64,000 bases of DNA from Mobula hypostoma (Eukaryota), in assembly GCF_963921235.1 (NCBI RefSeq), contig NC_086108.1:93064001-93128000 (forward strand), given 5' to 3'. The position numbers were made by a program, and so were the translations under genes. Shown here one piece after another: positions 2,207-61,422 of the stretch (its first letter is position 1; each line of letters begins with the position of its first letter). The notes below the pieces were generated by a model. The model saw only the letters and a program-made list of their open reading frames with translations, did no database searches and was not told where the DNA came from.

Positions 2207-2247
2207 CAGTACTGTGCAAACATCTTAGCACCCTAACTAGGTGTGTG

Positions 2248-2290
<43 letters not shown>

Positions 2291-4258: not shown

Positions 4259-4325
4259 ATAATTATACAGTATAAGTGCTATGCATTCTATATTGAGTTG
4301 GAGTTTATAGCTCAGCAGGGAGGAG

Positions 4326-24097: not shown

Positions 24098-24882
24098 TTT
24101 GGAAGCAGGTGCTTGTAGTGATCACGTACCACTTTCAGAGAGACTTCTGAGATTCTATTTGGTACAAAAGAAGAGCATTGGCTGCATTCACACCTTCCCC
24201 TGCTTTTGTTCTGTGTGAGCCAACTTTTCTCAGTTTAATCAACTGGTGTGAAATGCAGAGTGTATGCACAGTTAATAGAACTGCTGCGTTGCATCTTCTG
24301 CAACTTTGGTTCAATCCCCACCTGGACAGAGAACATAGAATAGAGAACATTACAGCACAGTATATACCCTTCGGAATATGGTGTGCCAACCTTTTAACTT
24401 ACTCTGATTGACCTAACTCTTCCCTCCTACATAGCCCTCCATTTCTCTAACATCCATGAGCTTCTCAAATGTCCCTAATGTATTTGTCTCTGCCATCACC
24501 CCTGACAGTGTATTCCACACGCTCACCACATTTTGTGTACAAACCTTACCTCCAATATCCACCCGAAACTTTCCTCCAATCACCTTAAAATTTTGCCCCT
24601 CACATTTAGCCATTACGCAAACAGAGCTTGCACATTCTCCCTATGACTGCACCGACTCCCCATGAGTGCTTCAATTTTGTCACATATCCCAGAGATGTGC
24701 GGGTTGCCTACTAGTGTGTAGGCAAGTTGGAGAATCCGAAGTGGGGTGGTGGAGGATAATGGGGAAGGGGGAATTGATGGGAATGTGACAATGATACATT
24801 ACAAGGAAAATTAGTTTGGAAAAGCATTACTCTATGAGTTGGCAAATATTCAATAAGCTAAAAGAACCTCCTATTTATAGGT

Positions 24883-38068: not shown

Positions 38069-38335
38069 TGTTATGTATTTACTATTTCTCTAATATTTGA
38101 GTAATCTTGTTTATATATATATATGTGTGTGTTTCTGCTTGTTGATTAAGCATTCTTGTTTATTTAAATAATTAATTATGGGTTATATGTAAAAATATGT
38201 TAATTGCATACATCCTCACACTACCACATGATACGTTCACACCTCGCTAAAAGTAAACTCAAAGTTACACTTGTCTTTTGGACTCCTCAATCCTTCCTTT
38301 GAACTAATAAATGTTTTGAAGTACAAAATATAACA
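38069..38335 (+). repeat. 5' LTR of copy B
   Basis: tgttatgtattt...tataaca (TG...CA, terminal inverted tgtta/taaca). Confidence 0.85.
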
Positions 38336-39764
38336 TTAGCAATGCGGTCTTTTTAAAACAGACCTGAGATGGCTATCAATCTGTTAAGGAGAGCGAGACA
38401 TTTGAACTAAAAAAAAACTTGGCGAGGAACAATTGAAATCTTAAAGAAACAGCCCAGCACATGGAGAGGCATCGAGTAAAAGGGCGCGAACAGAAGAATT
38501 CAGGGAACATAAAGAGTGAATACTGGGTGATAATAATCATTAAAAAAATCAGAAATGGTTGGCTGCATCTGAAAAATTGACAAGTTTGATTACACAATGG
38601 GTAATTGGCTCATGTATACTGAGCTTTTAGAACAGTATTCTGAAGCAAATGAAATAGCCCATGAGAAGTGAGTGCTAATTTTGCTAAATGTATTGGGTAT
38701 AAAGTCATACAATTTGCTTTAAAGTTTGATTTTGAAGTCCAATCAAACCATATAAATGAGCTCAGCTGAAGTAATGCAGGAACACTTAGAACTGAAGCCA
38801 TTCTTGATTGCAGAACACTTTAGGTTTCATTAGCAGAATCAAAAAGAAGGGGAGTCCATTCAGCATATGTGGCTCAATTGATGAAGTTGTATGAGCATTA
38901 TCAGATTGGCAATGGGTTAAATAATACAATGAGAGATCACTTAGTTTGTATAATCTTAAAAGAAGCTATTCAAAACAGCTCCTGATGGAAGCCCAGCTCA
39001 CATTTAAGAGAGCAGTTCAATTGCTGTTTCAATGGAAACTGCAGACAAAGATGCAATTGAGTCGCAGTCAGGAATGGAAGTGAGCATGAACAAAATTGCA
39101 TGATCAAAAAGAAACTGGCCTGGCCAAACAAATTGTGTTACCATTGAGGATGGGGCTCACATAAACAAAATAAATGCAGATTTAAGGGCAAAACTTTCAG
39201 AAAATGCAACAAAGTAGGACACATTCAAAAAACACATCAAGCAGACAAGAATAAATGGAATGCACAGAGAAGAGAAAAAGATAAATGTTCAAGTTGAAGT
39301 TTCAAAAAGAGCACCAATCTGTATGCTGTTGATGAAAAATCTGATAATGAGGAGAGTAGTCTTGAAACTTAAAATGTGAAAATTAACTATAAACACGAAA
39401 TCTGGCTAACGCCAGAAGTGAATGACAAATTCATTAAAATGGAATTGGATACTGGTTCAGCTGTTTCTTTCATTCCACAAAATGAGTTTGAGCAGCATTT
39501 CAAACAAACCAAACTGAAGCCTGCAAATGTCCCATTAAGAACTTATACTGGAGAAAGGATAACTCCTGTGGGAATGACATTCATAAAAAACCAAAAAGCC
39601 ACATTGAGCTTCTATGTGATAAAAACAGGTGGAGCAGCATTGTGGAAGCGTGATTGGCTGAGACAACTACAACTTGATTGGTGATCCATCCTCCACGTGC
39701 ATGCCACATTCTTGGCAATGAGCGAACTGAAAGTGAATTAAGAAAGGTACTGGATGATGCCACA

Positions 39765-40398
39765 ATTGTCTCCATGCCAAACACCATGAACCATTGCTCA
39801 ACAGAGGTCAAACAGGCATTGGTGACAACCTTTTTACTTCTGGTTGGAAAGTATATTAGACCAAAGAATGACCATGCTGCTCAGAGAAGGCGTGACTATG
39901 ATAAATGCAGTGGCGTGACTACAACTGTTTTTGTAGGCAACATATCTGAGGAAGCTTCTGATATGTTAATTAGGCAGTTGCTTGTGAAATATGGCTCAGT
40001 TCAAGGAGCTTCAGGAAAGATGCAAGCATTCGGCTTTTGTGAGTATAAGGAACCAGTATCTACTCAGTGTGTATTAAGGCATGAACTTCAACTGGGTAAA
40101 GCTTGTAAAAGTAGATGCAAAGGCCAAAGTGCAGCTGGACGAATGGAAGGCCAAAAAGAAAGGAGTCAATGGAGATACGAAAACAGAGGATTCATCAGAT
40201 GGTGTTGTAGATCTGGAAACCAAGAGGACCGATCAGATCGTAAAGGGAACAATAGAAGGATTAATAAGAGAATACTCCGGTGAACTAAATGGACCTTCCA
40301 AAGATCAAGACGCACTAACTAGAAGAAAAAAAGGGAAGGAAGAGACGGAGAAAAAGAATGTGAATGTGAAAAAGAATGGTGTGAAAGAGAGAAGGAAT
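39765..40398 (+). pseudogene. RBM25: Captured intronless RBM25 fragment (RRM, following helix, start of RE repeat); resumes at 43211-43270
   Basis: TTTVFVGNISEEASDMLIRQLL...VQGASGKMQAFGFCEYKEP; LVKVDAKAKVQLDEWKAKKK; QIVKGTIEGLIREYSGELN, matching the RBM25 N-terminal region as recalled. Clear homology starts near 39816. Confidence 0.92.
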
Positions 40399-43210
40399 TA
40401 ATTTGGCGGGGGATAGGAACAGGATGATAGGGCTGAGGAAGGGGAAAACAGAAATAAATCAAAGATAGCATGCAACAGGGATGATAGAAAGGACAGGCGG
40501 GAGATGAGGCATAATCACAGCCAATGGGATGATTTACAGGCCAATAACGGCATGGTGCAGTTGAAACAGGAAGCAACAAATACTGGACTGAAAGTGTTGT
40601 ATTTGAATGCACGCTGCATAAGAAATAAAATGGATGATCTTGAAATTCAGCTACAGATTGGCAAGTATAATGTTGTGGCCATCTCTGAAACTTGGCTAAA
40701 GGATGGCTGCCATTGGGAGCTGAATGTCCAAGGATATATGGTGTATCAGAAAAATAGGTTAGTAGGCAGACGGGGTGGTGTGACCCTGTGTATAAGAAAT
40801 AATATTAAATCATTAGAAAGGGATGACATAGGATCAGAAGGTGTAGAGTCTCTGTGGATTGAGTTAAGAAATGGCAAGGGTAAAAGGACCCTAATGGCAG
40901 TTGTATACAGGTTCCGAACAGCAGCTGGGATGGGGATTACAAACTACGACAGAAGATAGAAAAGGCGTGTCAGAAGGGCAATATCATGATAATCGTTGGA
41001 GATTTTAAACATGAAAATGGATTGGGAAAACCAGGCCAGTACCGGACCTCAAGAGAGAGAATTTATCTAAGGGATGGCTTTTTAGAACAGCTTGTTGTTG
41101 AGCCCACTAGGGGATCGGCTGTGCTGGATTGGGTGTTGTGCAATTATCTGGTGGTGATAAGAGAGTTTAAGGTTAAGGAACCCTTAGGGAACAGTGAGCA
41201 CAATATGATCGAGTTCACTTTGAAATTTGAGAAGGGGAAACTAAATTCCAATGTGTCGGTATTTCAGTGGAATAAAGGAAATTACAATGGCATGAGAGGG
41301 GAACTGGCCAAGGTTGACTGGAAAGACACACTAGCAGGAAGGACAGCAGAGCAGCAATGGCTGGAGTTTCTGCAAAAAATGACAGACGTGAAAGACAGAT
41401 ATATTCCAAATAAGAAGTTTTCAAATAGAAGAAGGACACTATCATGACTGACAAGTGAAGTCAGAGCCAAAGTAAAAGCAAAAGACAGGGCATACAAGGA
41501 AGCCAAAGCTAGTGGGAAGATAGAAGATTGGGAAGCTTTTAAAAACTTGCAGAAGGAAACTAAGAAGGTCATTCACAAGGAAAAGATGAATTATGAAAGG
41601 AAGCTGGCTACTAATATCAAAGAAGATACTAAAAGCTTTTTCAAGTATATAAAGGGTAAAAGAGAGTTGAAGGTAGATATAGAACCAATAGAAAATGACA
41701 CTGGAGATATTGTAATGAGAGACACAGAGATGGCAGATGAACTGAATGCGCATTTTACATCAGTCTTCACACTGAAAGACATGTGCTGTATACCGAACAT
41801 TCAAGAGTGTCAGGAAAGTGAAAATTACGACTGAGAAGATGCTCAGGAAGCTTAATGGTCTGAGGGTGGATGAATTTCCTGGACCTGATGGAATGCACCC
41901 TCAGGTTCCATAAGACCATAAGACCATAAGACAAAGGAGCAGAAGTAGGCCATTCGGCCCATCGAGTCTGCTCCGCCATTTTATCATGAGCTGATCCATT
42001 TTCTCCTATTTAGTCCCACTCCCCTGCCTTCTCACCATAACCTTTGATGCCCTGGCTACTCAGATACCTATCAATCCCTGCCTTAAATACACCCAATGAC
42101 TTGGCCTCCACTACTGCCCGTGGCAACAAATTCCATAGATTCACCACCCTCTGACTAAAAAAATTTCTTCGCATTTCTGTTCTGAAAGGGCGCCCTTCAA
42201 TCCTTAAGTCATGCCCTCTCGTACTAGACTCCCCCATCATGGGAAACAACTTTGCCACATCCACTCTGTCCATGCCTTTCAACATTCGAAGGAAGTAGCT
42301 GGAGAGATTGCAGAGGCATTAACAATGATCTTTCAAGAATCAACAGGTTCTGACATTGTACTGGATGACCGGAAAATTGCAAATGTTACTCTGCTATTTA
42401 AAAAGGGTGGGAGGCCGCAGAAAGGAAACTATAGACCTGTTAACCTGACATCAGTGGTTCGAAAGTTGTTGGAATCGATTGTTAGGGATAAGATTACGGA
42501 ATACTTGGAGGCACATGACAAGATAGGCTAAAGCCAGCAAGAGGACTCCCAAGTTCCTTTGAATTCTCTCCCCGTCTAAATAATATATTGCCCATTTATT
42601 TCTTCTACCAAAGTGCATGACAATACACGTTCCAACACTATATTTTATTTGCCACTTTGCCCATTCCCCTAAACTATCCAAGTTTCTCTGCAGGCTCTTA
42701 TTTTAGAAAGGATATGCTGACATTGGAGAGGGTTCAGAGAAGATTCACAAGAATGGTTCCAGGAATGAAAGGGTTACGGTATGAGGAACACCAGGTAACT
42801 CTTGGGCTGTATTCCCTGGAGTTCAGGCAAATGAGGGGGGATCTCATGGAAACATTCCGAATGTTAAAAGGCCTGAGCAGATTCGATATGACAAAGTTAT
42901 TTCCCATGGTAGGGGATTCTAGGACAAGAGGGCATGACTTCAGAACGTCCATTTAGAACAAGGATGTGGTGAAATTACTTTAGTCAGAGGGTGGTAAGTC
43001 TGTAGGATTTGTTGCCATGAGCGGCTGTGGAGGACAAGTCACTGGGTGCATTTAAGACAGAGATAGATAAGGCATCAAAGGGTATGGGGAGAAGGCAGGG
43101 GAGTAGGGATGACTGGAAGAATTGGATCAGCTCACGATTAAATAGCGGAGCAGACTCGATGGGCTGAATGACCTATTTCTGTTCCTATATTTATGGTCTT
43201 ATGGTCTTAT
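40399..43210 (+). mobile_element. CR1 (APE, partial RT, 3' end) inserted into the RBM25 segment
   Basis: LYLNARCIRNK, VVAISETWL, IVGDF, EPTRGSAVLDWV; (TTATGGTC)n tail; TSD ggaat 40394-40398 / 43211-43215. Confidence 0.92.
41908..42288 (-). mobile_element. CR1 3' end nested antisense within the CR1 above
   Basis: (CATAAGAC)n tail at 41908; ORF 42010-42285 TRGHDLRIEGRPFRTEMRRNFFSQRVV. Confidence 0.9.
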
Positions 43211-43600
43211 GGAATGTTGGAAGGAAAAAAAGAAAGGGATCGAAGTAGATTCAGAGGGGGAGAAAAGGAGAGGAAAGGTTTGCAGAACTGTTAGAACTAT
43301 ACACTTTCTACAGCCTCAGAATCAACTCCTACAGCCACCACTGAGGAGGCCCCAGAACCAGAGATTGTTTCACAGCCACAAGTCTCACCTGGCAGGCAGT
43401 GTGATCCCCTCCACCAGGAAAGAGATTATCCCACAAAGGAAAGAAAGCTTCCACGGTGATTAAATCTTTCAGCCTGAATGGGACAGTTTAAAATTTACTT
43501 TGTAGTCATCTGTATTTTGTCATTGTGTTATATAATATACTATGTATATAGTTCAGATATATTCTTATTGAGTTAGAGTTTATAGCTAAGCAGGAAGGAG

Positions 43601-43838
43601 AGCTGTGTATTTAATATTTCAGTAACATTTGAGTAATCTTGTCTATATGTTGTTTGATTAAGCATTCTAGTTTGTTTAAATAATTAATGACAGGTTATAT
43701 GTAAAAATATGTTAATTGCATACATCATCACACGTGATACATGCGCTCCTTGCTTAAAGTTAAGAAGTTACACCCACACTTCAGACTCCATATCTTCCTT
43801 TGAATTAATTTAATGTTTTGAAGTTACGACACATAACA
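43601..43838 (+). repeat. 3' LTR of copy B
   Basis: Follows the PPT, colinear with 38069-38335, ends cataaca. Confidence 0.85.
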
Positions 43839-46169
43839 GAGTACACTGTGGGAAAATGGGAGGTTATTCTCCTTGTTTAAAAAAACATAAGTTTTAAATG
43901 GGTGAATACTGGGAAAAGCAGAGGTCTGGGCCAATTTAAGCACCAGGCCAGCTTAAAAAGGTCAGAATGTCAGGGCCAGAGGCGAGGAATGGGCCAATTC
44001 AGTCCACTGTCCCACAAGGTTTACTCGTCTCTGTGCTAAATTGAGGCTCTGGCCAGCAACTACGGCCCATTGGAGCAGTTGCAGTGATGACGAGGTTGTT
44101 GGCTGTGGAATCACTTTTGTGAACTTCAGTTCTGAATGTTCATTGCTTGCTTTTATTGTTTGCATGATTTGTTTGTTTTTCTGCATATTGGGTGGTTGAT
44201 GGCCTTCTTTCTTAATAGGTTCTTTTGGATTTCTTTGTTCTGTGGCTGTCTGTACGGAGACCTCTGTGTTGTATATAGTATAGGTACTTCGACAATAAAT
44301 GTACTTTGAACTGTGTTCAATGGAAATTGTACACAGTATTAAAAGATAACATTAGTAAGATTAGTAGGCAGGTATGTTTATTGAAAAGTGACTTGGGTGT
44401 GGCAGCAACAACATCCTACTACAATAAAATAGGGATCTGGTGAGAGCAATTGAGAGTATTTTGTGCATGCTTAGTCTTCTTACCTAAAAAAATAGCTATA
44501 CTCTATATGGTATAGGAGTACAGCAGTGATTCACCAGGCTGGTTATTGGGATGGTATACAATATTTCAGGCCTCTTTCTTAAGTGTTTGGATAAGAGCTG
44601 ATCTCTGAAACAATCAAAGTTCTCAGATGGCTCAACAGAGTAGACACCAAGAGAAAGCTTCCCTTAACTGAGGGTTTGCAGACTCAGACAGGGAGTAGAC
44701 AATTTGGAACTGAGATGAAGAGAGGTGTGCTCACTCAGAAGTGATGAACCTCTGCCCTGAGGGGTGTGGAGGCACCATCATTGAGTTGTTCAGACCCAAG
44801 GTCGATAGAATCAGAACAACTGTATATTACCATTGAGATATGAAATTTGTTGTTTTGTGGCAGCAGTACTGTGCAAGACATAAACATTACTACAAGTTAC
44901 AGTGAAGAAGAAATAAGTAGTGCCAAAGACGAATAGTGAGGTAGTGTCAATGAGTTCATGGACTATTCAGAAATCCAATGGCAATTGGACAGAAGCAGCT
45001 CCTGAAACCTTGTGTGTGGGTCTTCAGCCTTCAGGCTCTGTACCTTCTCTCTGATATTCCACATATCAAAGGATCTGGGAGATACAGGGATTTGGCAGGA
45101 AGTGATGTCAGGACTGAAGATCAACCATGATCTCATTGAACAACAGATCGGACCCTAGGACCAGAATGCCTTGCTCCTTCCCCGTGCCTTACCTGTATGT
45201 TTGTAGGATGCCTGTTTTCACTTTTGTGGTGACACAAGGGACTGCAGTGGCTGGGATCTGGAGCAACACACGATCTACTGGAGGAACTCAGCAGGTCGAG
45301 CACCATCTATGGGGGAAAGGATGTTTTATCAATGCTTTTGGTCAAAACCTTGCATCAGGACTGATGTGATCCAGCAGATAGTTTGACTCTCCACTTTGGT
45401 AGCATTGGCCATCATCAGCTTTGACTTGCCTATCATTGTTTGGGAAGTTGACACTGCTGGTACATCACTCACTAAGGTATCAGGTGCCAAAGAGTCAAGA
45501 CATGCTGTTAGCAACTTCAAAGTCAAAATGACGTGGAAGTGAAGAATGAGGAGGAGTGCCTATTGTGGGATACAATGAAGTGAGGGCAACATGTGGTAGA
45601 GAGTGCCTGATCTTAGAGGTAATACATTCTTTCACTTCATCTTTACTGACTTACTGTTGTACCATTACAGATGGGAAAAAAAGGATTTTTTTTTCATTTT
45701 TCTGAGCCCTGGGCAGGCTTTGCCACAATGCCCACATTTCATTCGAGTGGGGCACCTCACAACAGGTAGGCACATTCCTGAGGTCTCCAGTTTTAGTGTT
45801 GTTAATACAGAGGATCAAATTGAACATAAACTCTTGAACAAAGGCAGGAGTTTCAAAAAATCTTCTGGAGGAACTCAGTAAGTTAAGCAGTGTCTCGTTT
45901 GTGGGAGGAAAGGAATTGTCTGCTGCAGGATGGTTCAGCGATTTAGTGTGACACCTCCCACTCCTGATGCAGGGTGTTGATCCAATTCCTTTCCTTCCCA
46001 GAAGTGCTGCTCAACCCACTGAATTCCTCCAGCAGATTGCTTGCTTCTTCAGATACCAGCATCTTCAGGCTCTTGTGTCAACAAACACAATCATAAACAA
46101 TAATTTTGAAAAAGGAATCGTTCTTCATTATTATTCCATCCCAAACACAAACAAAGCCTCTTTATTAAC

Positions 46170-47670
46170 ATGAGAAAGTCTGCAGATGCTGGAAATCCAA
46201 AATGACACACACAAAATGCTGGAGGAACTCAGCAGGTCAGGCAGAATCAATGTTTTGGGCCAAGATGCTTCTTCAGGACTGAGAAGGCAGGGGGAATGTA
46301 CCAGAATAAAAAGGTGTGGGGGCAATGGGGGAAAGAGGTGATAGGTGAAGCCAGTTGGGTGGGAAAGGTCAAGGGCTGGAGAGGAAGGAATCTGATAGGA
46401 GAGGAGAGTAGACCATAGGAGAAAGGAAAAGAGGAGGGAATCTAGGAAGAAGGGTGGGGGGCATGGGGAAATTCACTGGAAAGAGAAATCGATATTCATG
46501 CCACCAGGTTGGAGGCTAACCAGATGGAATATAAGGTGTTCCTCCTTCATCCTGTGGGTGGCCTCATCTTGGTACAAGCACCTCTTTAGTCCTCCTTCTT
46601 CAAAGAATAGGCTTTTCCTTCCTCCATCGGTTTTTCTGCCTTTACCTGCATCTCCTCCATTCCCCAGATATCTGCGGTCTCCCCATCTTCCTGCCACCTT
46701 GACAGGGATAGAGTTCCTTTTGTCCTCAACTACAAACCCATGAGGCGCTTTATCCAACACAACTTCTGCCATCTTCAACAGGACCCTACTGCCAAACACA
46801 TCTTAACCTTTTCCCCTGACTCTTTGCTTTCCGCAGGGATTATTCCATCCATGATTCCTGTGTCCATTCTTCCCTTCCCAATGATTTCCCTCCTGGCACT
46901 TATTCCTGCAAACAGCAGAAGTGCTACACCTTCTCCCTCACATCCATTCAGGGTCCCAATCTGTCCTTCCAGGTGAGGCAATACTTCATCTCTGAATATT
47001 CTGGAGTATCTGGTGCTCTCTGTGCAGCCTCCTCTACATTGGTGAGACCCAACATAGACAGGGGCGCCGCTTTATCGAGCACCTTTGACCATCTGCAAGA
47101 AGCAGGATTTCCTGGTGGCCAACTGTTTCAAACGAAGTTCCAATTTTGATTCCAATCCCCATTCCCATCCCAACATTTCAGTTCACGATGAGGCCACTCT
47201 CAAGTTGGAGGAGCAACACTTCATATTCTGTCTGAGAAGAGTCCAACTGATGGCATAGACATTGATTTCTCAAAATGTTGGCAGTTTTTCCTATTCCCCC
47301 ATTTCCTGTTCTTCATTTCCCCATTCTGGCCCCCCTTCTCACCTGCCTATCACCTCCCCTTGGTACCCCTCCACCTTCCCTTTGTCCTATGGTCCACTCT
47401 CCTCTCCTATTAGATGCTTCTTCTCCAGCCTCTTTTTCCTTTCCACCTGGCACCTCCCAGTTTCTTACTTCATCCCCTCACTCCTACCCATCTAGCTTCA
47501 CTTGTTACCCTCTAGCTTGTACTTCTTCCCCACCCTGTTCCTTCTTCTTCTGGCATCTTCCCCCTTCCTTTCCGGTCCTGATGATGCGCCTTGGCCCAAA
47601 ACATTGACTGTTTATTCATTTCCATAGATGCTGAGTGGCCTGCTGAGTTCCTCCAGTGTTTTGTGGTGTT
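46170..47670 (+). mobile_element. Penelope-like element: inverted 5' pseudo-LTR, GIY-YIG endonuclease relic, 3' pseudo-LTR
   Basis: About 47010-47090 reads CSLCSLLYIGETQHRQGRRFIEHL (GIY-YIG); 46170-46570 is an inverted copy of about 47200-47670; hammerhead remnants at about 46250 (-) and 47575 (+). Confidence 0.85.
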
Positions 47671-48164
47671 GCTCTTTAGCACAATCTTGCAATCACCCCA
47701 GAATGATTAAACTGCTCTTGAATAGTGAGTTAAACCCATAAAACTGAATGCTTGGGTATGATTCAGGAATTAGTAATTTGTTCTTATTCTATCCCAGATG
47801 ATAAAACACGAGTGCTTGTGCTAGAACATTGTGCTTCGTGTGTTACAAATAATTTGTAATAAAATAATTATTGTTTAGCTTATACGATGATCTAAAACCT
47901 CCAATGGTACACACAAGATGACTCCAGTAAATTCAAGGTCACAATTTCCTGCATGTAATCAACAAGATGTGGTATGGAATGGGAATGGTTCTGAGTAACT
48001 TGTATGAATCTCTTCACCACACTGCAGGAGAAATGTGAGAGCGTTAGAAAGGCCACAAAGGAGATTCAACAGGATGTTTTCTGTCAACAATACGGAGCTT
48101 TAAATTGTTTAGGTTTCTTCGCCTTTTATAATTATTCCATTGTATAAGGGCTAAGAGAGTTGTA

Positions 48165-51055
48165 AAAGAGCGCCTGAAGGCTTTGTGTGTCAATGCAAGG
48201 AGCATTTGTAACAAGGTGGATGAATTAAAAGTGCAGATTGTTATTAATGAATAGTTGGGATCACAGAGACATGGCTCCAGGGTGACCAAGGATGGGAGCT
48301 CAACATTCAGGGATATTCAATATTCAGGAGGGATAGACATGAAAGAAAAGGAGGTGGGGTGGCGTTGCTGGTTAGAGAGGAGATTAACGCAATAGAAAGG
48401 AAGGACATAAGCCGGGAGGATGTGGAATCGATATGGGTAGAGCTGCATAAAACTAAGGGGCAGAAAACGCTGGTGGGAGTTGTGTACAGGCCACCTAACA
48501 GTAGCAGTGAGGTTGGGGATGGTATTAAACAGGAAATTAGAAATGTGTGCAATAAAGGAACAGCAGTTATAATGGGTGACTTCAATCTACATGTAGATTG
48601 GGTGAACCAAATTGGTAAGGGTGCTGAGGAAGAGGATTTCTTTGAATGTATGTGGGATGGTTTTTTGAACCAACATGTCGAGGAACCAACTAGAGACCAG
48701 GCTATTCTAGACTGGGTAATGAGCAATGAGGAAGGGTTAATTAGCAATCTTGTCGTGAGAGGCCCCTTGGGTAAGAGTGACCATAATATGGTGGAATTCT
48801 TCATTAAGTTGGAGAGTGACATAGTTAATTCAGAAACAAAGATTCTGAACTTAAAGAAGGGTAACTTTGAAGGTATGAGAGGTGAATTAGCTAAGATAGA
48901 CTGGCAAATGACACTTAAAGGGTTGACGGTGGATATGCAATGGCAAACATTTAAAGATCACATGGATGAACTACAACAATTGTTCATCCCAGTTTGGTAA
49001 AAGAATAAATCAAGGAAGGTAGTGCACCCGTGGCTGACAAGGGAAATTAGGGATAGTATCAACTCCAAAGAAGAAGCATACAAATTAGCCAGAAAAAGTG
49101 GCTCACCTGAGGACTGGGAGAAATTCAGAGTTCAGCAGAGGAGGAAAAAGGGCTTAATTAGGAAGGGGAAAAAAGATTATGAGAGAAAACTGGCAGGGAA
49201 CATAAAAACGACTGTAAAAGCTTTTATAGATATGTGAAAGAAAAAGATTGGTTAAGACAAATGTAGGTCCCCTACAGACAGAAACAGGTGAATTAATTAT
49301 GGGGAGCAAGGACATGGCAGACCAATTGAATAACTACTTTGGTTCTGTCTTCACTAAGGAGGACATAAATAATGTTCCGGAAATAGTACGGGACAGAGGG
49401 TCCAGTGAGTTGGAGGAACTGAGGGAAATACATGTTAGTAGGGAAGTGGTGTTAGGTAAATTGAAGGGATTAAAGGCAATAAATCCCCAGGGCCAGATGG
49501 TCTGCATCCCAGAGTGCTTAAGGAAGTAGCCCAAGAAATAGTGGATGCATTAGTGATAATTTTTCAAAACTCTTTAGATTCTGGACTAGTTCCTGAGGAT
49601 TGGAGGGTGGCTAATGTAACCCCACTTTCTAAAAAAGGAGGGAGAGAGAAACCAGGGAATTATAGACCGGTTAGCCTAACATCGGTGGTGGGGAAACTGC
49701 TAGAGTCAGTTATCAAAGATGTGATAACAGCACATTTGGAAAGCGGTGAAATCATCGGACAAAGTCAGCATGGATTTGTGAAAGGAAAATCATGTCTGAC
49801 GAATCTCATAGAATTTTTTGAGGATGTAACTAGTAGAGTGGATAGGGGAGAACCAGTGGATGTGGTATATTTGGATTTTCAAAAGGCTTTTGACAAGGTC
49901 CCACACAGGAGATTAGTGTGCAAACTTAAAGCACACTGTATTGGGGGTAAGGTATTGATGTGGTTAGAGAGTTGGTTGGCAGACAGGAAGCAAAGAGTGG
50001 GAATAAACGGGACCTTTTCAGAATGGCAGGCAATGACTAGTGGGGTACTGCAAGGCTCAGTGCTGGGACCCCAGTTGTTTACAATATATATTAATGACTT
50101 GGATGAGGGAATTAAATGCAGCATCTCCAAGTTTGCGGATGACACGAAGCTGAGCGGCAGTGTTAGCTGTGAGGAGGATGCTAAGAGGATGCAGGGTAAT
50201 TTGGATAGGTTAGGTGAGTGGGCAAATTCATGGCAGATGCAATTTAATGTGGATAAATGTGAAGTTATCCACTTTGGTAGCAAAAACAGGAAAACAGATT
50301 ATTATCTGAATGGTGGCTGATTAGGAAAAGGGGAGGTGCAACGAGACCTGGGTGTCATTATACACCAGTCATTGAAAGTGGGCATGCAGGTACAGCAGGT
50401 GGTGAAAAAGGCGAATGGTATGCTGGCATTTATAGCAAAAGGATTCAAGTACAGGAGCAGGGAGGTACTACTGCAGTTGTACAAGGCCTTGGTGAGACCA
50501 CACCTGGAGTATTGTGTGCAGTTTCGGTCCCCTAATCTGAGGAAAGACATCCTTGCCATAGAGGGAGTACAAAGAAGGTTCACCAGATTGATTCCTGGGA
50601 TGGCAGGACTTTCATATGAAGAAAGACTGGATGAGCTTAGGTTTATACTCATTGGAATTTAGAAGAATGAGGGGGGATCTGATTGAAACGTATAAAATCC
50701 TAAAGGGATTGGACAAGCTAGATGCAGGAAGATTGTTCCCGATGTTGGGGAAGTCCAGAATGAGGGGTCACAGTTTGAGGATAAAGGGGAAGCCTTTTAG
50801 GACCGAGATTAGGAAAAACTTCTTCACACAGAGAGTGGTGAATCTGTGGAATTCTCTGCCACAGGAAACAGTTGAGGCCAGTTCATTGGCTATATTTAAG
50901 AGGGAGTTAGATATGGCCCTTGTGGCTAAAGGGATCGGGGGTATGGGGGGAAGGCTGGTACAGGGTTCTGAGTTGGATGATCAGCCATGATCATACTGAA
51001 TGGCGGTGCAGGCTCAAAGGGCCGAATGGCCTACTCCTGCACCTATTTTCTATGT
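48165..51055 (+). mobile_element. Young CR1, nearly complete ORF2 (APE and RT) with few stops or frameshifts
   Basis: Consecutive ORFs 48359-49000, 49514-50320, 50336-50990: VYRPP, MGDFN, SDHNM, QHGFVKGKSCLTNL, FADDTK; tail ttttctatgt. Confidence 0.96.
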
Positions 51056-51394
51056 GCTGATTAACTTGCTTTTAAGGCAACATGAAACCATGATGATTGC
51101 TGAAACTGAGCCTCATAAGTAAACCCAGAAGAATGTCATGTTGAAATCTCGGGATATTATAGAAAGTCAATCTAATCACTAATGACGTGGGCTGTGTGGA
51201 GATGCAATCTTCACAAGGTGAATCAGAGTGTTTGCGGAACACCTTAGCTTTGTTGCATGATCTGAGGGGGTGCCTGAATCTTCTGAAATCACAATATGTG
51301 AAGTTTTGTTTTGTTTTCTTAAAGGGTTTACAAAATAAGTCCCAAACTTTTGCATCACAGACTTTGGATTTTTTCCCAATGTAGAAAATATTCG

Positions 51395-52012
51395 GCGGGA
51401 GGAGAAGATGGCAGCGCACCACGCGTGCGCAGCCCTCCGGTGAAAAATGATGTCATATCTGTTAAATAGGGGCCGTGGACAATTCTGATCTCATGGAGAA
51501 TGGATGTGAAATCACAGAGGAACATCTGGAGAAATTTCTGAAACGCCCGTTTGCTGCTGTCATTACTGTGTGGTCGGGAATCTTTCAGAGGGAAGGCCTC
51601 AAAATCCCCGGCCTTGCCTGCTTTTGGCGACCGAGAAGGAGGTTGAATCTTTTGGCAGAGATGCCGCTCGGTACTCAGTGTCAGAGAGCTGATCAGAGCT
51701 TGAAGTTTTCGGATGACTCAGAGACGGATTGTAGTCAGCATGGCAGGGAGGGTTTTTCTTCCTTCCCCTGTCTGTGTGAGATGTGGGACATTTGAGAGAC
51801 TTTGAACTTTACTGTGCTCACGGACTTTCTTCATCAAGTTATGGTATTGTGCACTGTTGTAACTATATGTATAATTATGTGGTTTTGTCAATTTTTTCAG
51901 TCTTGGTCTGTCCTGTATTTTGTGATATCACACCGGAGGAAATATTGTATCATTTCTTAATGCATGCATTACTAAATGACAATAAAAGGGGACTATGTGT
52001 CTTCATAACCTA
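51395..52012 (+). mobile_element. Second copy of the ~620-bp retroposon at 24883-25500
   Basis: gggaggagaagatggcagcgc...taaatgacaataaaagggg. Confidence 0.8.
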
Positions 52013-54411
52013 AAACTTGAAACATCTGTGTCTTTTCTCTGTTCTGGATTTATTGTTTAGATCTACGTATATGGAGGGGATAATTGTATGCATGGAACAG
52101 CCCATTTGACCAGCACGTCCATGATGTCCAGTGGGGACTCATCCATATTAATCCATCTTCCAGCGCTTGGCCGGTAGCTTTCTATGCATAAGCAATTCAC
52201 TTTTGCCATTTCTGGAGCATTTGCTAGCTCAGGACAGCATGGATGGAAAGCATGCAAGGAGCCAGCTGGATATGGACTCAGGACCATTCGCCTTGAAGTC
52301 TGGTGCTGATGCCACTATCACTGTTGGTGAATCCCCTCGAAATCTCTTGCCGTTTCCAGTTTTATCTACCGATTATATGTTGGATAGTTTCCTGAAGTAT
52401 CCCTTATCTGTACCCTTCATCATTTTGTCTGTCACATCCCTGCCTGATCTCCATTCCTGGGAAAAAATGTTCTCGCTTCCATCTTGTCTGACCAATCTGA
52501 ATGAATTTTTTTTGACGAGGTAACAAAGTGTATTGATCACATCTTCCCTCTAATGCAGAGAATAGAACTGCAATCAAACTCCTATTGTGTCTGAACAATG
52601 TTTCACAAATTGGAACATAGCCTCCCTTTTCTTGTGTTCATTACAGTGACCAGTGAAGGCCATTGAACATCAATTTCTTCCCCTCTCTGTCTCCTTCTCT
52701 CTTTTTTCTATTCTCCATTCACTCTTTCTGTCCTATCTCTCAGAATATTTTCCAATAAATTCCTACTACTGATGTAGCAGGCCTGTAGTTACCAGTCTCA
52801 AAGGACAAACCCGTGATTGGTAAGTCCCAGTGTGAAGTCTGAAGTTGGAGGCCTGACGTCTGCAAGTCTCAGAGTCCGGACCCAAGGACTGGGGGCCCAG
52901 AGGTGGACTGTCCTGGGGTTGGAGATCTGTCTGTATGTGAAGGAGTGAGTTTGTGGGAAAAGGGGTCGGTTATGCTGTTGTCTTATTTTGTTGTTGTTGC
53001 TGTTTATGTTGTTCTATTGAACTTGTGGGCATTCTATGTTGGTGTATGGTGACACCTGTGGGCAGCCCTCAGCACATCATTGAGTGTGTTGGTTGTAGCA
53101 CAAATGACACATTTCACTGTATGTTTCAATGTACATGTTATAAATAAATCTGAATTTACTCTTCTCCAAGGGGGTTCTGACCACATCTTTTCTCTGTCTG
53201 TTTGGTAATCTCCTTTCATAACAATGTTCGGACTGCAGTGTCTGTATTAAGTCTGGGAACAAGGGAGTAGTCAGACATAGTGGACAAAGAATAATTAGGG
53301 CACTGCTTCTGGGGTTGTTGAAACAAGAGAGGACACTGACGTTGGTTCAATTTTCCTGCCCGTGAATCTGAAGGATATTTGGTCAAGTATGTGGCTGGAG
53401 CTGAGGGTCAGGAAAATGGGCTGGGTCTATAACCAGTGTTGGTGGGATTTGGTAAACGTGGGTCAGTTGTGTGTGCGGTCAGAGCAGAGATCCGGAGCGT
53501 GGGTCAGGTGTGTGACAGGCGTGAGGGTGTCAGGAATCGGGGTAGATTCGTGATCTTCTAATTCATGTGGGTATGTTTGAAAAATCTTTCAAAGCTCAGA
53601 ATAAACCCAAATACTGTGTATGCCCAACAAAATAAAATGCAAAACTTCACTCATTAGAATGGCTAGAACTCTTATTTTTTGGTTCCACTTTATGGAAAAT
53701 AGTTCCTTTTTTATTACAGTTAAGTGTTTGAGAAAATCTTTTTCCATTTATGGGTAAAATGAGTGTGGTTACTGTCAACTGCAACTGAATTGAGATCTGT
53801 AAAGATCAGAGTGTTCAAAGATAGTTTGGTTTATTATTATTGCTGTCATGTGTACAAAGTGCAGTCATTCCACGTTGAGGTAGTAACAGAAATCAGAATG
53901 CAGAATATAGCACAACAGCTATGGGGAAAGTAGAACATAACTAAACAAATAAAGAGCATAAGGCTGTGCTGAGGTCAACTGGAAGATCAGGAATTTATCC
54001 TTGGCATATGAGAGGCCCATTCAATGATCTGTTAACAGTGGGATACAAACCATCCTTGAATCTGGTGGTACATACTTTCAGACTTTCCTAACTTTTTCTG
54101 GATGGAAAGAGGAGGGTGAGAAGTGAGAGTGACTGGGGTAGAAGGGGCCCTTGATTATGTTGGCTGCTTTCCAGAGGCAGATGGAGTCAATGGAAGGAAG
54201 GTAGGTTGGTAGGTTTGCATGACATCGTGGGCTATGTTCACAGTTAATTATAATTTACCAGTGTTTCCCGTGTCACCACAGTCACCCCACTAACCGTACA
54301 ACTCGCAAACATACCGGGTTAATCAGTTGTAGGTGTGGTCATTTTGAAAATTCTGTGTAGCATTCTTGACGTGATTAAAAGTGTAAGTTCTGTGTGGTTG
54401 ATGTTTTTAAA

Positions 54412-55090
54412 ACATAGGAGCAGAGTTAGGCCATTTGGCTCATCAAGTCCGCTCCACCATTCAGTCATGGATGATGTATTATCCCTGTCAGGCCAATTCT
54501 CCTGCCTTCTCCCTAGAAGCTTTGACACCATTACTGATCACAAACCTATCAACCTCTATCTTAAATATAAAAAATGACTTGGCTTGCACAGCTGCCTGTG
54601 GCAATGAATTCCACAGATTCACCACTCCATGGCTGAAGAATTTTTTCTTTGTCTCTGTTCTTACTGGATGTCACCCAATTCTAAAGGTGTGGTTTCTGGT
54701 GCAAGACTCTCCCACTATAGGAAACATCATCTTCATACTGACTCTATTTAAGCCTTCCAGTATTTGATAGGTTTCAATGAGTTCCCCCCTCCTTCTTCTA
54801 AATTCCAGCTAGTAAAGGCTCAGAGCCATCAAACACTCCTCATTGGTTAACCCTTTCAGTCCTGGGGTCATTCCCAAGAACCTCCTCTGGACCCTCACCA
54901 TCACCAACACTTCTTTTCTTAGATAAGGGGCCCAAAACTCCTCACAATATTCCAAGCGCGGTCTGACCAATACCTTATAAAGCCTCAGCATTACATTCCT
55001 GCTTTTGTATTCTAGTCCTCTTGAAGTGAATGCTAACATTTCATTTGCCTTCCTTACCATTGATTGAATCTGCAAGTTAATCTTTAGGGA
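54412..55090 (-). mobile_element. CR1 3' fragment
   Basis: LYKVLVRPRLEYCEEFWAP on the minus strand. Confidence 0.85.
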
Positions 55091-55094
55091 ACTT

Positions 55095-56118
55095 CCACCA
55101 TAAATACACCCACGGACTTGGCCTCCACTGCTGTCTGTGGCAGAGCATTCCACAGATTCACTACTCTCTGGCTAAAAAGGTTCCTCCTCACCTCTGTTCT
55201 AAAGGGTCGCCCTTCAATTTTGAGACTGTGCCCACGAGTTCTGATGGCCCCACCATAGGAAGCATCTTCTCCACATCCACCCCATCTAGTCCTTTCAACA
55301 TTTGGCAGGTTTCAGTGAGATCCCCTCACATTCTTCTAACTGCCAGGGAGTATAGGCCCAAAGCTGCCAAATGCTCCTCATATGTTAATCCTTTCAATCC
55401 TGGAATCATCCTCATGAACCTTCTCTGGACTCTCTCCAATGACAGCTCATCCTTTCTGAGATATGGGGCACAAAGCAATTGACAATACTCCAGGTGCAGC
55501 TGACTAGTATCTTATAAAGGGTCAGCATTATCTCCTTGCTTTTATATTCTATTCCCTTTGAAATAAATGCCAACATTGCATTGTAGACTCAATCTATAAA
55601 TTAACCTTCTGGGAGTCTTGCACGAGACTCCTAAGTCCCTCTGCACCTCTGATGTTTGAGCTTTCTCTCTATTTAATTAATAGTCCGCACTATTGTTCCT
55701 TTTAGCAAAATACATTATTGTACATTTCCCAGCACTGTATTCCATCTGCTACTTTTTTTGCTCATTTTTCCAATTTGTCTAAGTCCTGCTGCAATCACAT
55801 TGCTTCCTCAGCACTACCAACCCTTCCATCTATCTTCGTATCATCCACAAACTTTGCCACAAAGCCATCAATTCCATTATACAAGTCACTGACAAACAAT
55901 GTGAAAAGTAGCGGTCCCAATACTGGCCCCTGAGGAACACCACTAGTCACTGGCAGCCAGCCAGAAAAGGCCCCTTTTATTCCCACTCAGTACCTCCTGC
56001 CTGTCAGCCGTTCCTCTATCCATGCCAGTATCCTTCCTGTAATGCCATTGAATTTTATCTTGTTAAGCAACCTCGTGTCTGGCACCTTATCAAATGCCTT
56101 CTGAAAATCCAAGTAAAA
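55095..56118 (-). mobile_element. CR1 RT fragment
   Basis: SGVPQGPVLGPLLF...KFVDDTK. Confidence 0.85.
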
Positions 56119-57047
56119 TGATTGAATTTTTTGAGGATGTGACTAAACACATTGATGAAGGTAGAGCAGTAGATGTAGTGTATATAGATTTCAGCAAGAC
56201 ATTTGACAATACCACATGCAAGGCTTATTGAGAAAGTAAGGAGGCATGGGATCCAAGGGGACATTGCTTTCTGAATCCAGAACTGGCTTGCCCACAGAAG
56301 ACAAAGAGTGTTGTAGATGGGTCATCTTCTGCATGGAGGTCGGTTACCAGTGGTGCCTCAGGGATCTGTTCTGGGACCCCTACTCTTCATGGTTTTTATA
56401 AATGACCTGGATGAGGAAGTGGAGGGATGGGTTAGTAAATTTGCTGATGGCACAAAGGTTGGAGGTGTTGTGGATAGTGTGGAGGGCTGTCAGAGGTTAC
56501 AGCAGGACATTGATAGGATGCAAAATTGGGCTGAGAAATGGCAGATGGAGTTCAATCCACATAAGTATGAGGTGGTTCATTTCGGTAGGTCAAATATGAT
56601 GACAGAATATATTATTAATGGTAAGCCTCTTGCCACTGTGGAAGATCAGAGGGATCTTGGGGTCCGAGTCCATAGGACACTCAAAGCTGCTGTGCAGATT
56701 GACTCTGTGGTTAATACGGTGCATTGGCCTTCATCAATTGTGGGATTGAGTTTGGGAGCCGAGAGGTAATGTTGCAGCTCTATAGGACCCTGGTCAGACC
56801 CCACTTGGAGTACTGTGCTCAGTTCTGGTTGACTCACTATTGGAAGGATATGGAAACCATAGAAAAGGTGCAGAGGAGATTTACAAGGATGTTGCCTGGA
56901 TTGAGGAGCATACGTTATGAGAATAGGTTGAGTGAACTCGGCCTTTTTTCTTTGGAGCAACGGAGGACGAGAGGTGACCTGATAGAAGTGTATAAGATGA
57001 TGAGAGGCATTGATCGTGTGGACAGTCGAAGACTTTTTCCCCGGGAA
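56118..57047 (+). mobile_element. CR1 RT fragment, same subfamily as 285-1413
   Basis: PQGSVLGPLLFMVFINDL, LVRPHLEYCAQFW; lacks its 3' tail. Confidence 0.9.
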
Positions 57048-57173
57048 GGTAGGTTTGCATGACATCATGGGTTATGTTCACAGCTAATTATAATTTACCA
57101 GTGTTTACCATGTCACCACAGTCATCCCACTAACTGTACAATTCACAAATATACCAGGTTAATCAGTGGTACA

Positions 57174-58540
57174 TGAAACCCCGGTTTCCTTGGGCCGCAT
57201 AATTCTAGGGAATACACACTTCGGTCCCGCCAAATCCGTGAGGTTGGGTTGGCTCTCCCACCTCAAACTGCGGTTTCAGTGGATGCTGCGTAATTTGCTA
57301 CCCTTTTACAACTCAGTGCCAAGAAATAGCAGACAGCACACTGCATACGATTGAAGGAATTATATTTATGAATTTTAACTGAAGGGTTAGTAAAGAAAAG
57401 AAAGAACACAAAAACAAAAAGGGCCCGTTATAATTAAACAGTCAAATGTGCACAAGTTGGAGCTCAACTCTTCTAAAAGTCATATTCACCGATCCTCAGT
57501 CGACCTCCGCACCTTGCTCCATCAAATCATGGTCCCCCACGGGGTCAAATCCTATGACTGGTTCTCTCCAGCGGTCTTCTCTTTTCAACTCTCTCCCCAC
57601 AGAAATGGCCCCAGGTTACACCGGTGTCAGGCAGACAAAAAAACCCACTCCCCTGATTGGATGGCTTACATACCAAAGCACCCGTTATCTCAGAGGTTTC
57701 AAAGGCACACTTAATGTCAGAGAAATGTATACGTAAGTACCTCCTGAAATGCTTTTTCTTCACAAACATCCATAAAAAGCAGAGGAGTGCCCCCGAAGAA
57801 TTAAATGTTAGAACACCAAAGTCCCCCCCCCGATACGCTCCCTCCTGCACATAAGCTGCAGCAAGCAACATCCCCTTCGTCCCACCAGCAAAAAAACTCA
57901 TCGGCACCCACCACCGAGCACTCAAGCGTGAGCGAAGACACAGACTTGCAGTACCCCAAAGATTTCTTGTTCACCCGGTATTCGACATACCACAGGCTCT
58001 CTCTTTCCCTATAAAGGAGAAAGAGATGTCTCCATTTCACAGCGAGAGGGGAGACAGAAAAAACAACTCACTGGTTTATGTTGTTAAAAGTTCGTTGTGT
58101 CGCTCTTTCTGAGCTCTGTGCCCAAAGACCTCAGCCAGAGATCTTCTGTCTCCAATGACACTCTGAGCTCCTGCAGAGGCACCAACCTCCAATCCCCTTG
58201 TCTCCAGAGCCATGAAATCTCAGTCCTCCGAAGGCAGACGAAGCTCTTAGGCCAAGCCCTTGGTGTGCCAAACAACGGCCAGTCATGAAACCCCAAGAGT
58301 GGGTTCCATTCCTGCAAAGAACCGTAGTCAGTGTGTAACTCCAGATCAGGGTCTTCAAAAGAACCCTGAAAGGGAAAATTAGTGAAATTAAAGATGGAAA
58401 TAGAGTCCGAAAATGCAAGCAAAGGACTCGCCGTTAGGCGCCATTAATCCTCCTAAGCTCCTTCCTCTAACCATAACCCAAACACTGCTTCAACAGAAAG
58501 ACTATTATGTTAGCAGTGAAACCTTTACCAGGGTGCTACA
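57174..58540. mobile_element. Probable solo LTR containing a nested retroposon (about 57690-58092, minus)
   Basis: taca|TGaaacccc...gggtgctaCA|tata; absent from the paralogous block at about 54330. Confidence 0.55.
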
Positions 58541-58626
58541 TATATATGGTCTGTGTAGCATTCCTGACGCGATTAAAAGTGCAAGTTCTGCATGGTTGAT
58601 ATTTAATGGCAGCGTATTGTTTTATC

Positions 58627-59440
58627 ATAAGACTGTAAGACATAGGAGCAGGGTTATGCCATTTGGCTCATCGAGTCTGCTCCATCATTCAATCGTGGAT
58701 GATGTATTCTCCCTCTCAAGCCCATTCTCGCGCTTTCTCCGCGTAACCTTTGACATCCTTGCTAATCGAAAACCTGTCAACCTCAGCATTAAGTGTATAA
58801 AATGACTTGACTTGCACAGCCGCCTGTGGCAATGAATTCCACAGATATGCCACCTTCTGGCTAAAGAAATTTTTCCTCATCTCTATTTTAAGTGGCTGTC
58901 CCTGTATTCCGAGGCTGTGCCTTCTGGAACTAGACTCCCCAACTATGGAAACATCATCTCCACATCCACTCTGTCTAGACCTTTCAATATTTGATAGGTT
59001 TCAATGAGATCCGCCCAGTTCTTCTAAACTTCAGCAAGTACAGGCTCAGAGCCATCAAACACTCCTCATAGGTTAACCCTTTCATTCCTGGCATCATTCT
59101 CGTGAACCTCCTCTGAACCCTTTCCAATGCCATCACATCTTTTCTGAGATGTGGCCCAAAACTCCTCATAATATTCTAAGTGCTGTCTGACTAATACCTT
59201 ATGAAGCCTCGGCATTACATTCTTGCATTTGTATTCTAGTCCTCTCGATATGATCACCAACATTTCGTTTGTCTTCCAACTCAACCTGTAAGTTATCTTT
59301 TGGGAATTCTCCACGAGAACTTTGATTTTTTGAGTTTTCTCCTCATTTAGAGAACAGTCCATGCCTTCATTCCTTCTACCAAAGTGCATGACTATACACT
59401 ATGTTCCACATGCCACTTCCTTGCCCATTCTCCCAATTTG
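58627..59440 (-). mobile_element. CR1 3' fragment, paralog of 54412-55090
   Basis: cataagactgtaagacatagg tail; ALERVQRRFTRMMPGMKGLTYEE. Confidence 0.85.
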
Positions 59441-60217
59441 TTTAAAAGAGCAGTGGAAATTGCTGTTTCAATGGAAACTACAGACAGAGATGCAATTGAG
59501 TAGCAGTCAGGAATGAAAGTGAGCGTGAACAAAATTGCATCGTCTTAACAGAAACCAGTCTGGTCATACGAATTGTGTTACTGTTGTGGCAGGGGCTCAC
59601 GTACACCAAACAAATACAGGTTTAAGGGTAACCCTTGTAGAAAATACAACAAAGTAGGACACATGCAAAGAACATGTTGGGCAGACTAAATAAATGTCCT
59701 GCACAGGAAGGAGAAAAATATGAACAGCCAAGTTACAGCTTCAGAAAGGGCATTAATCTGCATGCTATTGATGAAAATTCAGGTAACAATAAGAGTGATA
59801 TAGGATTTTGTAGCCTTGAAATTTACACTGTGAAAATTAACAATAGTCAATCAACATGGCTCACACCAGAAGTGAACAGAAAATTATTTTAATTAAAATT
59901 GGACACTGGATCAGTGTTTCAGTGGTTCCACAAAATAAGTTTGATGAAATTTCAAAATACCAACTTGAAATCCAACTAAGAACTTATACTGCAGATAAAT
60001 AACTCCTGTGGGAATGACATCTGTAACGGTGAAATACAACCACCAACAAGCCACATTGAGCTTGTATGTGGTAAAAGCAAAAGGGCCAGCATTGTGGAAG
60101 TATGATTGGCTGAGACAACTACAACTTGATTGGAGATCCATGCACCACTTGTATGCCACATCCCCTGCAATGAATCCAACAGCAAGCGAATAAAGAAATG
60201 CGCTAGATGATGCCACA

Positions 60218-60910
60218 ACTGTCTCCGTGCTGAATACCATGAACTGTTGCCCAACAGAGGACTAACAGGTGTTGGCAACAACCTCTTTGCTTCCGGTTGG
60301 AAAGCATATTGGACCAAGGAAGGGCCATGCTGCTCAGAGAAGCATGAAAGTGACAAAAGCAACAAGAGTTTTTATAGGCAACATATCAGAGAAAGCTTCC
60401 TATAGGTTAATCAGGCAGTTACTTGCAAAATGTGGCATGGTTTTAAGCTTGGAGAGAGTTTCAAGGAGCTTCAGGAAAGTTGCAAGCATTCAACTTTTTT
60501 GAATATAAAGTTCCAGAATCTACACGGGATGCATTAAGATTATTGTGTGAACCTCAAGCGGGAGACAAAAAACTGCTTGTAGAAGTAAATGTAAAGACCA
60601 AAGCCCAGCTGGATGAAGAGAAGGCTGAAGAGAAGGCAGTCAATGGAGTTATGAAAACTAAGGATTTGTTGTGGATGAAGAAACCCAGAGGAGAGATCAA
60701 TCATAAAGGGAGCAATAGTTGAATTAATAAGAGAATACTCAAGCAAACTAAATGCACCTTCACAAGATCAAGATGTACAAACTAAAAGAAGAAAGAGAGA
60801 AGAGTTGGAGAGAAAAAATGTGAATGAGAAAGAGAAAGATGTGAAAGAGAGAAGGAATGTGAGAAAGAAAAAGAAAGGGATCAGAGTAGATCCAGAGAGA
60901 GAAAAGAAGG
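60218..60910 (+). pseudogene. RBM25: Captured intronless RBM25 fragment, second copy
   Basis: VGKHIGPRKGH, VFIGNISEKASYRLIRQLLAKCGMVLSLERV, QAFNFFEYKVPESTRDALRLL, GDKKLLVEVNVKTKAQLDE, LIREYSSKLNAPSQ, then an RE/RS-like tract. Confidence 0.92.
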
Positions 60911-61199
60911 GGAAAGGTGGCCTCCACTGTCAGAACCGCTCTTTGCAATCTCAGAGTTAACTCCTGTAACCACGACGGAGGAGGTCCCAGAACCTGAGAT
61001 TGTTTCACAGCCATAAGCAGAGTGACCCCCTTTGTCAGGAAAGATGTTTTCCCCCAAGAGAAAGATATCCTCCACAGTGATTAAATCTTTGGGACAATTT
61101 AAAATTTACTATGGTGTGGATGTCTGTATATAGTAGTTGTATAGTATAGTTGAGGTACATTCTGTATTGAGTTGGAGCTTATAGCTAAGCAGGGAGAAG

Positions 61200-61422
61200 T
61201 GTTGTGTATTTAATATTTCAATATTATTTGAATAAGCTTGTATATATACTGTTTGATGAAGCACTCATTCAAAAAATTAATTATGGATTATATGTAAAAA
61301 AACACTAATTGCATAAATTATGCTACTACATGATATGTTCACACCTTACTTAAAGATGTATTTATTGGACTCTTGTGTTTCCTTTGAATTAGTTTAATAT
61401 TTTGAAGTTACAAAACATTACT
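61200..61422 (+). repeat. 3' LTR of copy C
   Basis: tgttgtgtatttaatatttc...gaagttacaaaacattac. Confidence 0.82.

Follow-up and report, generated by a model that had tools for sequence, protein, structure and literature searches.

Retrocopies of animal genes made by LTR retrotransposons arise by a known mechanism (Tan et al. 2016, PMC5131818). As laid out in the accessible portion of that paper, the internal ORF of the element is replaced by a partial spliced mRNA, the LTRs are kept, no poly(A) is present, and microsimilarity at the switch points has a median of 6 bp. Two Drosophila retrocopies that occupy several insertion sites were proposed there to move as non-autonomous elements; the same portion reports 18 sites for nine retrocopies and five of seven young zebrafish retrocopies, and the species that it names include no cartilaginous fish. 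Captured host mRNAs that recur across species and have deletion derivatives are also exemplified by the crocodilian CrocERV31-nectin3 and CrocERV29-KIT-ligand (Chong et al. 2014, PMC4299795); going by the available sections, these are ERVs with 6 and 9 copies in which env was replaced or the gene was added, and the ORFs are under purifying selection. Maize Bs1 (PMC13317346) and the pepper NLR retroduplicates (PMC5664825) are presented, in the text at hand, as non-autonomous LTR elements that hold host coding sequence and are moved in trans. Bs1 joins pieces of three genes in an expressed gene, and in pepper 86-123 NLRs lie inside LTR elements under purifying selection.

The RBM25-carrying family described here is well supported as real; it is a striking extreme of this known process, and it is dead. 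Each feature tested from the scheme of Tan et al. was found, namely an intronless multi-exon copy, microsimilarity on both sides (7 and 10 nt), the lack of a poly(A) and dispersed copies. What sets the family apart from the retrocopies in the accessible part of their paper is that one old capture led to 10^3 fixed copies, with internal subfamilies, common to several species. With the crocodilian elements, as far as their description was available, it shares the cross-species occurrence and the deletion derivatives of a captured host mRNA; unlike them, it is a Gypsy element that lost pol, has more than 100 times as many copies and carries an unselected insert. It resembles the plant elements, on the same partial texts, in its presumed movement in trans, and differs from Bs1 in being one vertebrate capture and from the pepper elements in its neutral amplification. 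Very probably, a single template-switch capture was followed by amplification in trans as a passenger-carrying non-autonomous Ty3/Gypsy subfamily, with deletions arising in later masters. A single LTR-mediated capture of a vertebrate mRNA can, from this example, become a major repeat family, at about a hundred times the copy numbers of the vertebrate cases compared.

The literature searched, with Repbase, Dfam, supplements and most subscription journals outside its scope, yielded no description of an RBM25-carrying family or of such a scale, and the available main text of a manta and devil-ray genome preprint (10.64898/2026.10.27.761883) does not contain 'RBM'. Retrocopy counts, the mapping of reads and the masking of the real gene can all suffer from more than a thousand RBM25-like fragments; the retrocopy pipeline of a VGP preprint, according to its accessible text, discards candidates that overlap repeats (PMC13320880).

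Copies B and C and the captured RBM25 transcript

The window is the whole stretch of DNA analysed, 64,000 nucleotides at C50:93064001-93128000. It holds two chimeric copies, both on the + strand. Copy B (38069-43838) consists of two LTRs, gag-protease, an RBM25 insert, an integrase tail and a polypurine tract (PPT); copy C (59441-61422) is built alike but lacks the 5' LTR and the 5' part of gag. Alignment of B with C runs from gag through protease and a single common junction into the insert, then into the tail, PPT and LTR, in agreement with the first-pass annotation, which had described both as Gypsy copies built in this order.

In copy B, the 5' LTR (38069..38335) has TG...CA ends and an 8-bp terminal inverted repeat, and is followed by a decayed primer-binding site (PBS; 38336..38350) whose family motif is clearer in other copies. 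That motif presumably resembles tRNA-Ser(GCU). Gag and the aspartic protease, located by tblastn of the Gag-Pol protein P0121, occupy 38351..39757 with stops and frameshifts; the protease matches Pfam RVP at E=0.0012, below the cut-off. The 5' switch point is a 7-nt microhomology, TGCCACA (39758..39764), common to the parent pol and to host RBM25 exon 3. The first part of the RBM25 cDNA (39758..40398) was mapped exon by exon onto the host gene and comprises, as spliced host exons, the end of exon 3 (39758-39767), exon 3b (39768-39815), exon 4 (39816-39986), exon 5 (39987-40026) and exon 6 (40027-40173), then most of exon 7 and part of exon 9. A 2.8-kb LINE (40399..43215, + strand), presumably CR1-like and foreign to the family, was inserted later with a 5-nt duplication, GGAAT, and divides the RBM25 segment. 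The second part of the cDNA (43216..43276) contains the end of exon 9, the exon 9/10 junction and the start of exon 10, and closes with the 3' microhomology. Alignment places the integrase C-terminal tail, 3' UTR and PPT (~43588-43600) at 43267..43600 and the 3' LTR at 43601..43838; the latter is at a K2P distance of 0.195 from the 5' LTR.

Copy C begins within gag, its 3' half and the protease lying at 59441..60210. Its RBM25 cDNA (60211..60915) consists of the end of exon 3 (60211-60220 by host exon mapping, with the 5' overlap at 60211-60217), exons 3b, 4, 5 and 6, most of exon 7, parts of exon 9 and the start of exon 10, and by alignment is followed by the integrase tail, 3' UTR and PPT (60906..61199) and the 3' LTR (61200..61422). 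The switch had earlier been placed at one identical point, 39764 and 60217; the common junction stands, and the two positions are refined to the right ends of the 7-nt overlap that begins at 39758 and 60211. Residues that each copy was said to keep are indeed present, CGMVLSLERV and GDKKLL in C and RRRDYDKCSG in B. The two copies differ by 20% over 482 common sites, rank 1526 of 1764 pairs in similarity, and show no similarity between their 2-kb 3' flanks; on these grounds they are not one locally duplicated retrocopy, again as first proposed. Elsewhere in the window, LINEs interrupt a decayed parent-family element that retains pol, at positions 1-4567; its pol matches lie at 1-233 and 1506-1802, its tail at 1830-2035, and its PPT with the 3' LTR at ~4310-4567. 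A piece of the same LTR as in B and C lies on the - strand at 24002-24098.

The insert holds an RRM domain (Pfam E=2e-5), and all named proteins among the 120 listed of 173 matches to it are RBM25 or unnamed or hypothetical proteins with its RRM. Against the spliced host exons, the inserts of B and C are each 81% identical by blastn, over 622 and 618 nt. The host has a single RBM25 locus, on contig C1, where the C-terminal part of gar RBM25 matches four exons; this protein search located the gene, and a search with the PWI domain was rejected for matching other genes. These other genes are presumably SRRM1-like and PRPF3-like. Upstream of the C-terminal exons lie ten further exons, all bounded by AG/GT and splicing into the open RBM25 frame; the exon numbers are those of this analysis. 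The 5' end of the insert corresponds to the final 10 nt of exon 3, exon 3b (48 nt) comes next, and the longest form reaches ~31 nt into exon 10, with eight introns over 29 kb of the host gene left out. Of 62 sampled copies, 57, 55, 56, 56 and 51 cross the first five exon junctions, respectively, without an intron. Both the named matches and the exon-by-exon mapping, with exon junctions crossed, establish an intronless segment that best matches RBM25, and the intron-free junctions together with microhomology at both switch points bear out the capture of a spliced mRNA by an LTR element.

Exon 3b (C1:99832586-99832633) is an in-frame cassette exon. In the Heptranchias (shark) protein P0123, 14 residues of its peptide are identical, and the RBM25 proteins of gar, bichir, frog and bird that were compared lack it; judged from these sequences, it is possibly specific to cartilaginous fishes. 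The exact match to the shark peptide suggests that the host is itself a cartilaginous fish. In the family an old RBM25 transcript is preserved as a fossil, together with this shark-shared cassette exon. Fragments of the family's LTR also occur on C1 within the region of the host RBM25 gene or close to it (L030, L037).

The pol-bearing parent and the spread of the chimera

Both switch points lie in microhomology with a pol-bearing parent family, 7 nt at the 5' side and 10 nt at the 3' side, which is what template switching leads one to expect. At the former, parent and host have TGCCACA in common and the parent runs on past the 7-mer into RT; at the latter, the parent integrase tail and host exon 10 coincide in GGAGAAGAAA. 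The 5' break is identical throughout the 62 sampled copies. Across it the RBM25 reading frame continues that of the protease, and natural stop-free stretches span it; the 3' junction enters the integrase tail in a non-integrase frame. The insert replaces ~2.5 kb of pol, stops early in exon 10 and has neither poly(A) nor mRNA 3' end. Beyond the protease region, P0121 finds no match in B or C to RT, RNase H or the integrase core.

Relatives without the insert, in which the same protease continues into RT, were sought at 12 loci, of which nine have RT-region matches, two are chimeric and one has no match. Contigs from three other organisms that diverge from the window at 39764 (138-165 each) continue as the parent. 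The Pfam order in P0121 gives the parent order as protease-RT-RNase H-integrase with no env; colinear Gag-Pol matches occur at L098, L102-L104 and L121, in the last of which an LTR lies ~0.4 kb past the integrase match, the parent having been read in pieces rather than from any single copy end to end. The parent family has the LTR, PPT, gag-protease, integrase tail and decay level of the chimera; unlike it, the parent retains RT, RNase H and integrase, and has about twice as many copies at the common site. Because the chimera lacks RT, RNase H and the integrase core, and a pol-bearing family of the same divergence has the same gag, tail and LTR, mobilisation in trans by these relatives appears likely on sequence grounds. 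The ten best matches to P0121 (L110-L119) were rejected as parents, having no DNA similarity to the element; they belong to other Gypsy families, with long and less broken pol regions. Two parent-type loci on opposite strands (L099 and L100, at C1:100.90 Mb and 102.87 Mb) share one private deletion at the site of the junction and are probably a segmental duplication.

Across the 3.48-Gb assembly of 200 contigs, a 201-nt junction probe returned 1,820 candidates, and the junction was spanned in all 40 that were scored. A 27-nt junction pattern, allowing at most two mismatches, matched 808 times on dozens of contigs and reversed control patterns did not match at all (0); the parent's matching site (27 nt, at most two mismatches) gave 1,729 matches. 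Scaled for an assumed decay of 8-12%, with indels and CpG ignored, these counts correspond to ~1,300-2,300 chimeras, which make up ~32%, or about a third, of the family at the junction site. The many genomic copies of a non-autonomous RBM25-carrying subfamily that had been foreseen are thereby found. Two other counts were set aside: an exclusion pattern for the parent's continuation (344 matches) mostly caught mutated parent copies, and the 547 matches at the parent's 3' site are not comparable with the 808, coming from a one-copy pattern in which a common variant costs a mismatch.

The sample of 62 copies comprises B, C, 39 junction-probe places and 21 of 54 protein-match places, and over-represents the long form. 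LTR pairs with TG...CA ends, decayed in some, were recovered in 24 of the 62, B included, and not in the other 38; within pairs, K2P divergence is 0.18-0.35 (mean 0.25, n=24). A 5-bp target site duplication (TSD) is perfect in 7 of the 24 pairs (P ~4e-14 at an assumed 0.002 each) and matches at no fewer than four of five positions in 10. The remaining 14 match at three of five positions or fewer, and copy B has no recognisable TSD (0/5); age and boundary error may account for the mismatch in these 14. A PBS motif after the 5' LTR and a PPT motif before the 3' LTR recur in the family. The genome-wide junction, with its different flanks, LTR pairs and perfect TSDs, thus agrees with the first reading of the family as dispersed insertions.

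One pair of copies, L085 (C96:22.42 Mb) and L092 (C96:23.60 Mb), is only 1.2% apart and likely a segmental duplicate; the next closest of 1,764 pairs is 11% apart. In L085 the protease-RBM25 junction is repeated internally, and the chimeric copy in L074 is followed within ~1 kb by another LTR and gag from this family (L074:6230-7201).

The chimera exists in three nested deletion forms, long, medium and short. The long form, ~15% of chimeras, keeps exon 8, for which a pattern search gave 122 matches including the host gene (121 in elements); B and C are medium and lack this exon. The existence of the long form upholds the proposal that B and C derive from a chimeric master more complete than either. 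Medium and short copies have in common a ~119-nt deletion bounded by similar words, one in exon 7 and one in exon 9, and their RE repeat is further shortened. Local matches specific to exons decided the form of each copy (15 long, 16 medium, 18 short, 13 unclassified), and the calls were then adjusted by eye, moving seven unclassified copies and one short one (15 long, 21 medium, 20 short, 6 unclassified); global alignment, ambiguous in the purine-rich repeat, was dropped for this purpose. Marker sites are enriched in the medium and short forms yet cross between forms: at one site the derived state occurs in 4 of 13 scored long copies, and the host state in 7 of 37 medium or short copies. A simple succession of masters is therefore too neat, and recombination between masters through co-packaged RNAs is the likely inference. 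The family is a large natural data set on the shrinkage and recombination of non-autonomous LTR elements. Bases of the primer-binding site also differ between most long copies (L042, L078, L080, L082, L086, L088) and most medium and short ones.

Passenger or functional insert

On the favoured reading, a spliced RBM25 mRNA of the isoform with the 48-nt cassette exon would have been co-packaged with Gypsy RNA. Reverse transcriptase would have jumped to this mRNA at the 10-nt match in the integrase tail and returned at the 7-nt match just past the protease, whereby RT, RNase H and the integrase core would have given way to ~1.07 kb of RBM25 cDNA in a product that retained its LTRs, PBS, gag-protease and PPT. 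The enzymes of the pol-bearing parent, active simultaneously, would then have re-copied the chimera; later masters, from which most copies stem, would have lost purine-rich stretches of the insert by deletion at short repeats, presumably in the order long to medium and short. The RBM25 piece would be a passenger, in a subfamily now extinct. The abundance of LINEs in the window and the near-identical C96 pair could suggest instead that a LINE-made RBM25 processed pseudogene landed in a Gypsy copy and that the composite spread by DNA-level duplication. However, pol is replaced rather than interrupted, the insert has no poly(A) or mRNA 3' end and both its ends lie in microhomologies, and the copies, each with TSDs of its own, sit on dozens of contigs at the distances given above. 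Since the TSDs and the star-like divergence refute this history as a general explanation, it is extremely improbable.

Whether the captured piece was useful bears on the passenger part of the favoured reading. A Gag-protease-RBM25 fusion (RRM plus RE-rich), or merely a long open frame, might have aided packaging or RNA stability and so driven amplification. The two frames are joined at the 5' junction with stop-free stretches across it, the RRM is retained in all three forms, and the chimera accounts for about a third of the family. Where the spacing between exon 7 and the tail could be measured, one and the same remainder on division by three was found in 7 of 11 copies of the long form, 6 of 13 of the medium and 11 of 13 of the short. 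Yet changes on the medium/short lineage are mostly non-synonymous (5 of 7), and the deletions common to these forms put RBM25 out of frame after exon 7. The deletions shift the frame individually, two restorations of frame are expected by chance about 1 time in 9, and the repeats, being triplets and hexamers, bias lengths towards multiples of three in any case. A useful capture is accordingly judged unlikely, and the frame observations, compatible with some selection on the masters, leave room for it. More specifically, the masters' Gag-protease polyprotein, with the RRM of a splicing factor in frame, could have aided the packaging or export of its own RNA or protected it from splicing or decay; if so, a retrotransposon gave up its enzymes and gained a stolen RNA-binding domain in exchange, a reading that seems quite improbable. 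In a weaker version, the RBM25-matching copies, in their thousands, may have been a source of small RNAs or decoy transcripts with an effect on the host gene.

The individual copies decay neutrally and give no sign of a selected fusion protein. Private changes number 721 synonymous against 2,274 non-synonymous (24%, with a neutral expectation of 29%), and synonymous enrichment was found in none of 61 testable copies, ~4% of the family (best p = 0.20). This result also weighs against the domestication of one or more copies as RBM25-like retrogenes, which stop-free stretches of 175-284 codons in a few copies (4 of 54 matches without stops) might suggest; the top-scoring protein matches all have stops, in a stricter first look whose count is a floor. 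The first-pass annotation had expected copies to be mis-annotated as RBM25-like genes, and this was not borne out in what is a weak test: no chimeric protein occurs among the 120 listed of 166 matches, in a search with a length window and 90% clusters, and the sole cartilaginous-fish name among them is a genuine shark RBM25 fragment. Domestication is accordingly considered very unlikely.

Age and occurrence in other organisms

Twenty differences from the host gene are fixed in all forms, 19 synonymous and one non-synonymous, and at the latter site the shark protein agrees with the element and not with the host. Since the shark sides with the element there and 19 of the 20 are synonymous, the fixed differences fit change in the host gene after the capture. 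They amount to an estimated ~0.11 per synonymous site, which matches the copies' own decay of 0.10 and so suggests amplification soon after capture. In gag-protease, the chimeric copies and six pol-bearing ones differ by 0.15-0.21 per codon position, no more than within the groups, which argues that the two families were contemporaries. Between long and medium copies the third-position difference in this region is 0.225, a small excess over 0.196 and 0.203 within the groups. Dating with a shark pedigree rate (7e-10 per generation in the accessible text of PMC10587355) gave more than 10^8 generations and was dropped as implausible.

Words of copy B are present in ten organisms, small shares not counting as evidence, and sequence pieces from four were aligned to it, the cross-organism reading resting on 32 of ~78,000 pieces. 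No source of these words is on record as RNA, and exact pieces of copy B in one set that may be RNA speak neither for nor against expression. Among the pieces listed, some cross the junction in organisms A, B and F with 31 letters or more to either side of it. For organism J the piece listed reaches just 22 letters into gag, though the insert is as deep in coverage as gag. The boundary between flank and LTR of copy B itself is bridged in organism B, with 4 differences in 304 letters, and in organism J, with 31 differences and 28 gap letters in ~390. Beyond the assembly, chimeras are thus found in A, B and F, and the copy B insertion in B and J. Shared insertions of this kind could be usable as phylogenetic markers; bridged in both B and J, the boundary indicates that the insertion of copy B is older than those splits.
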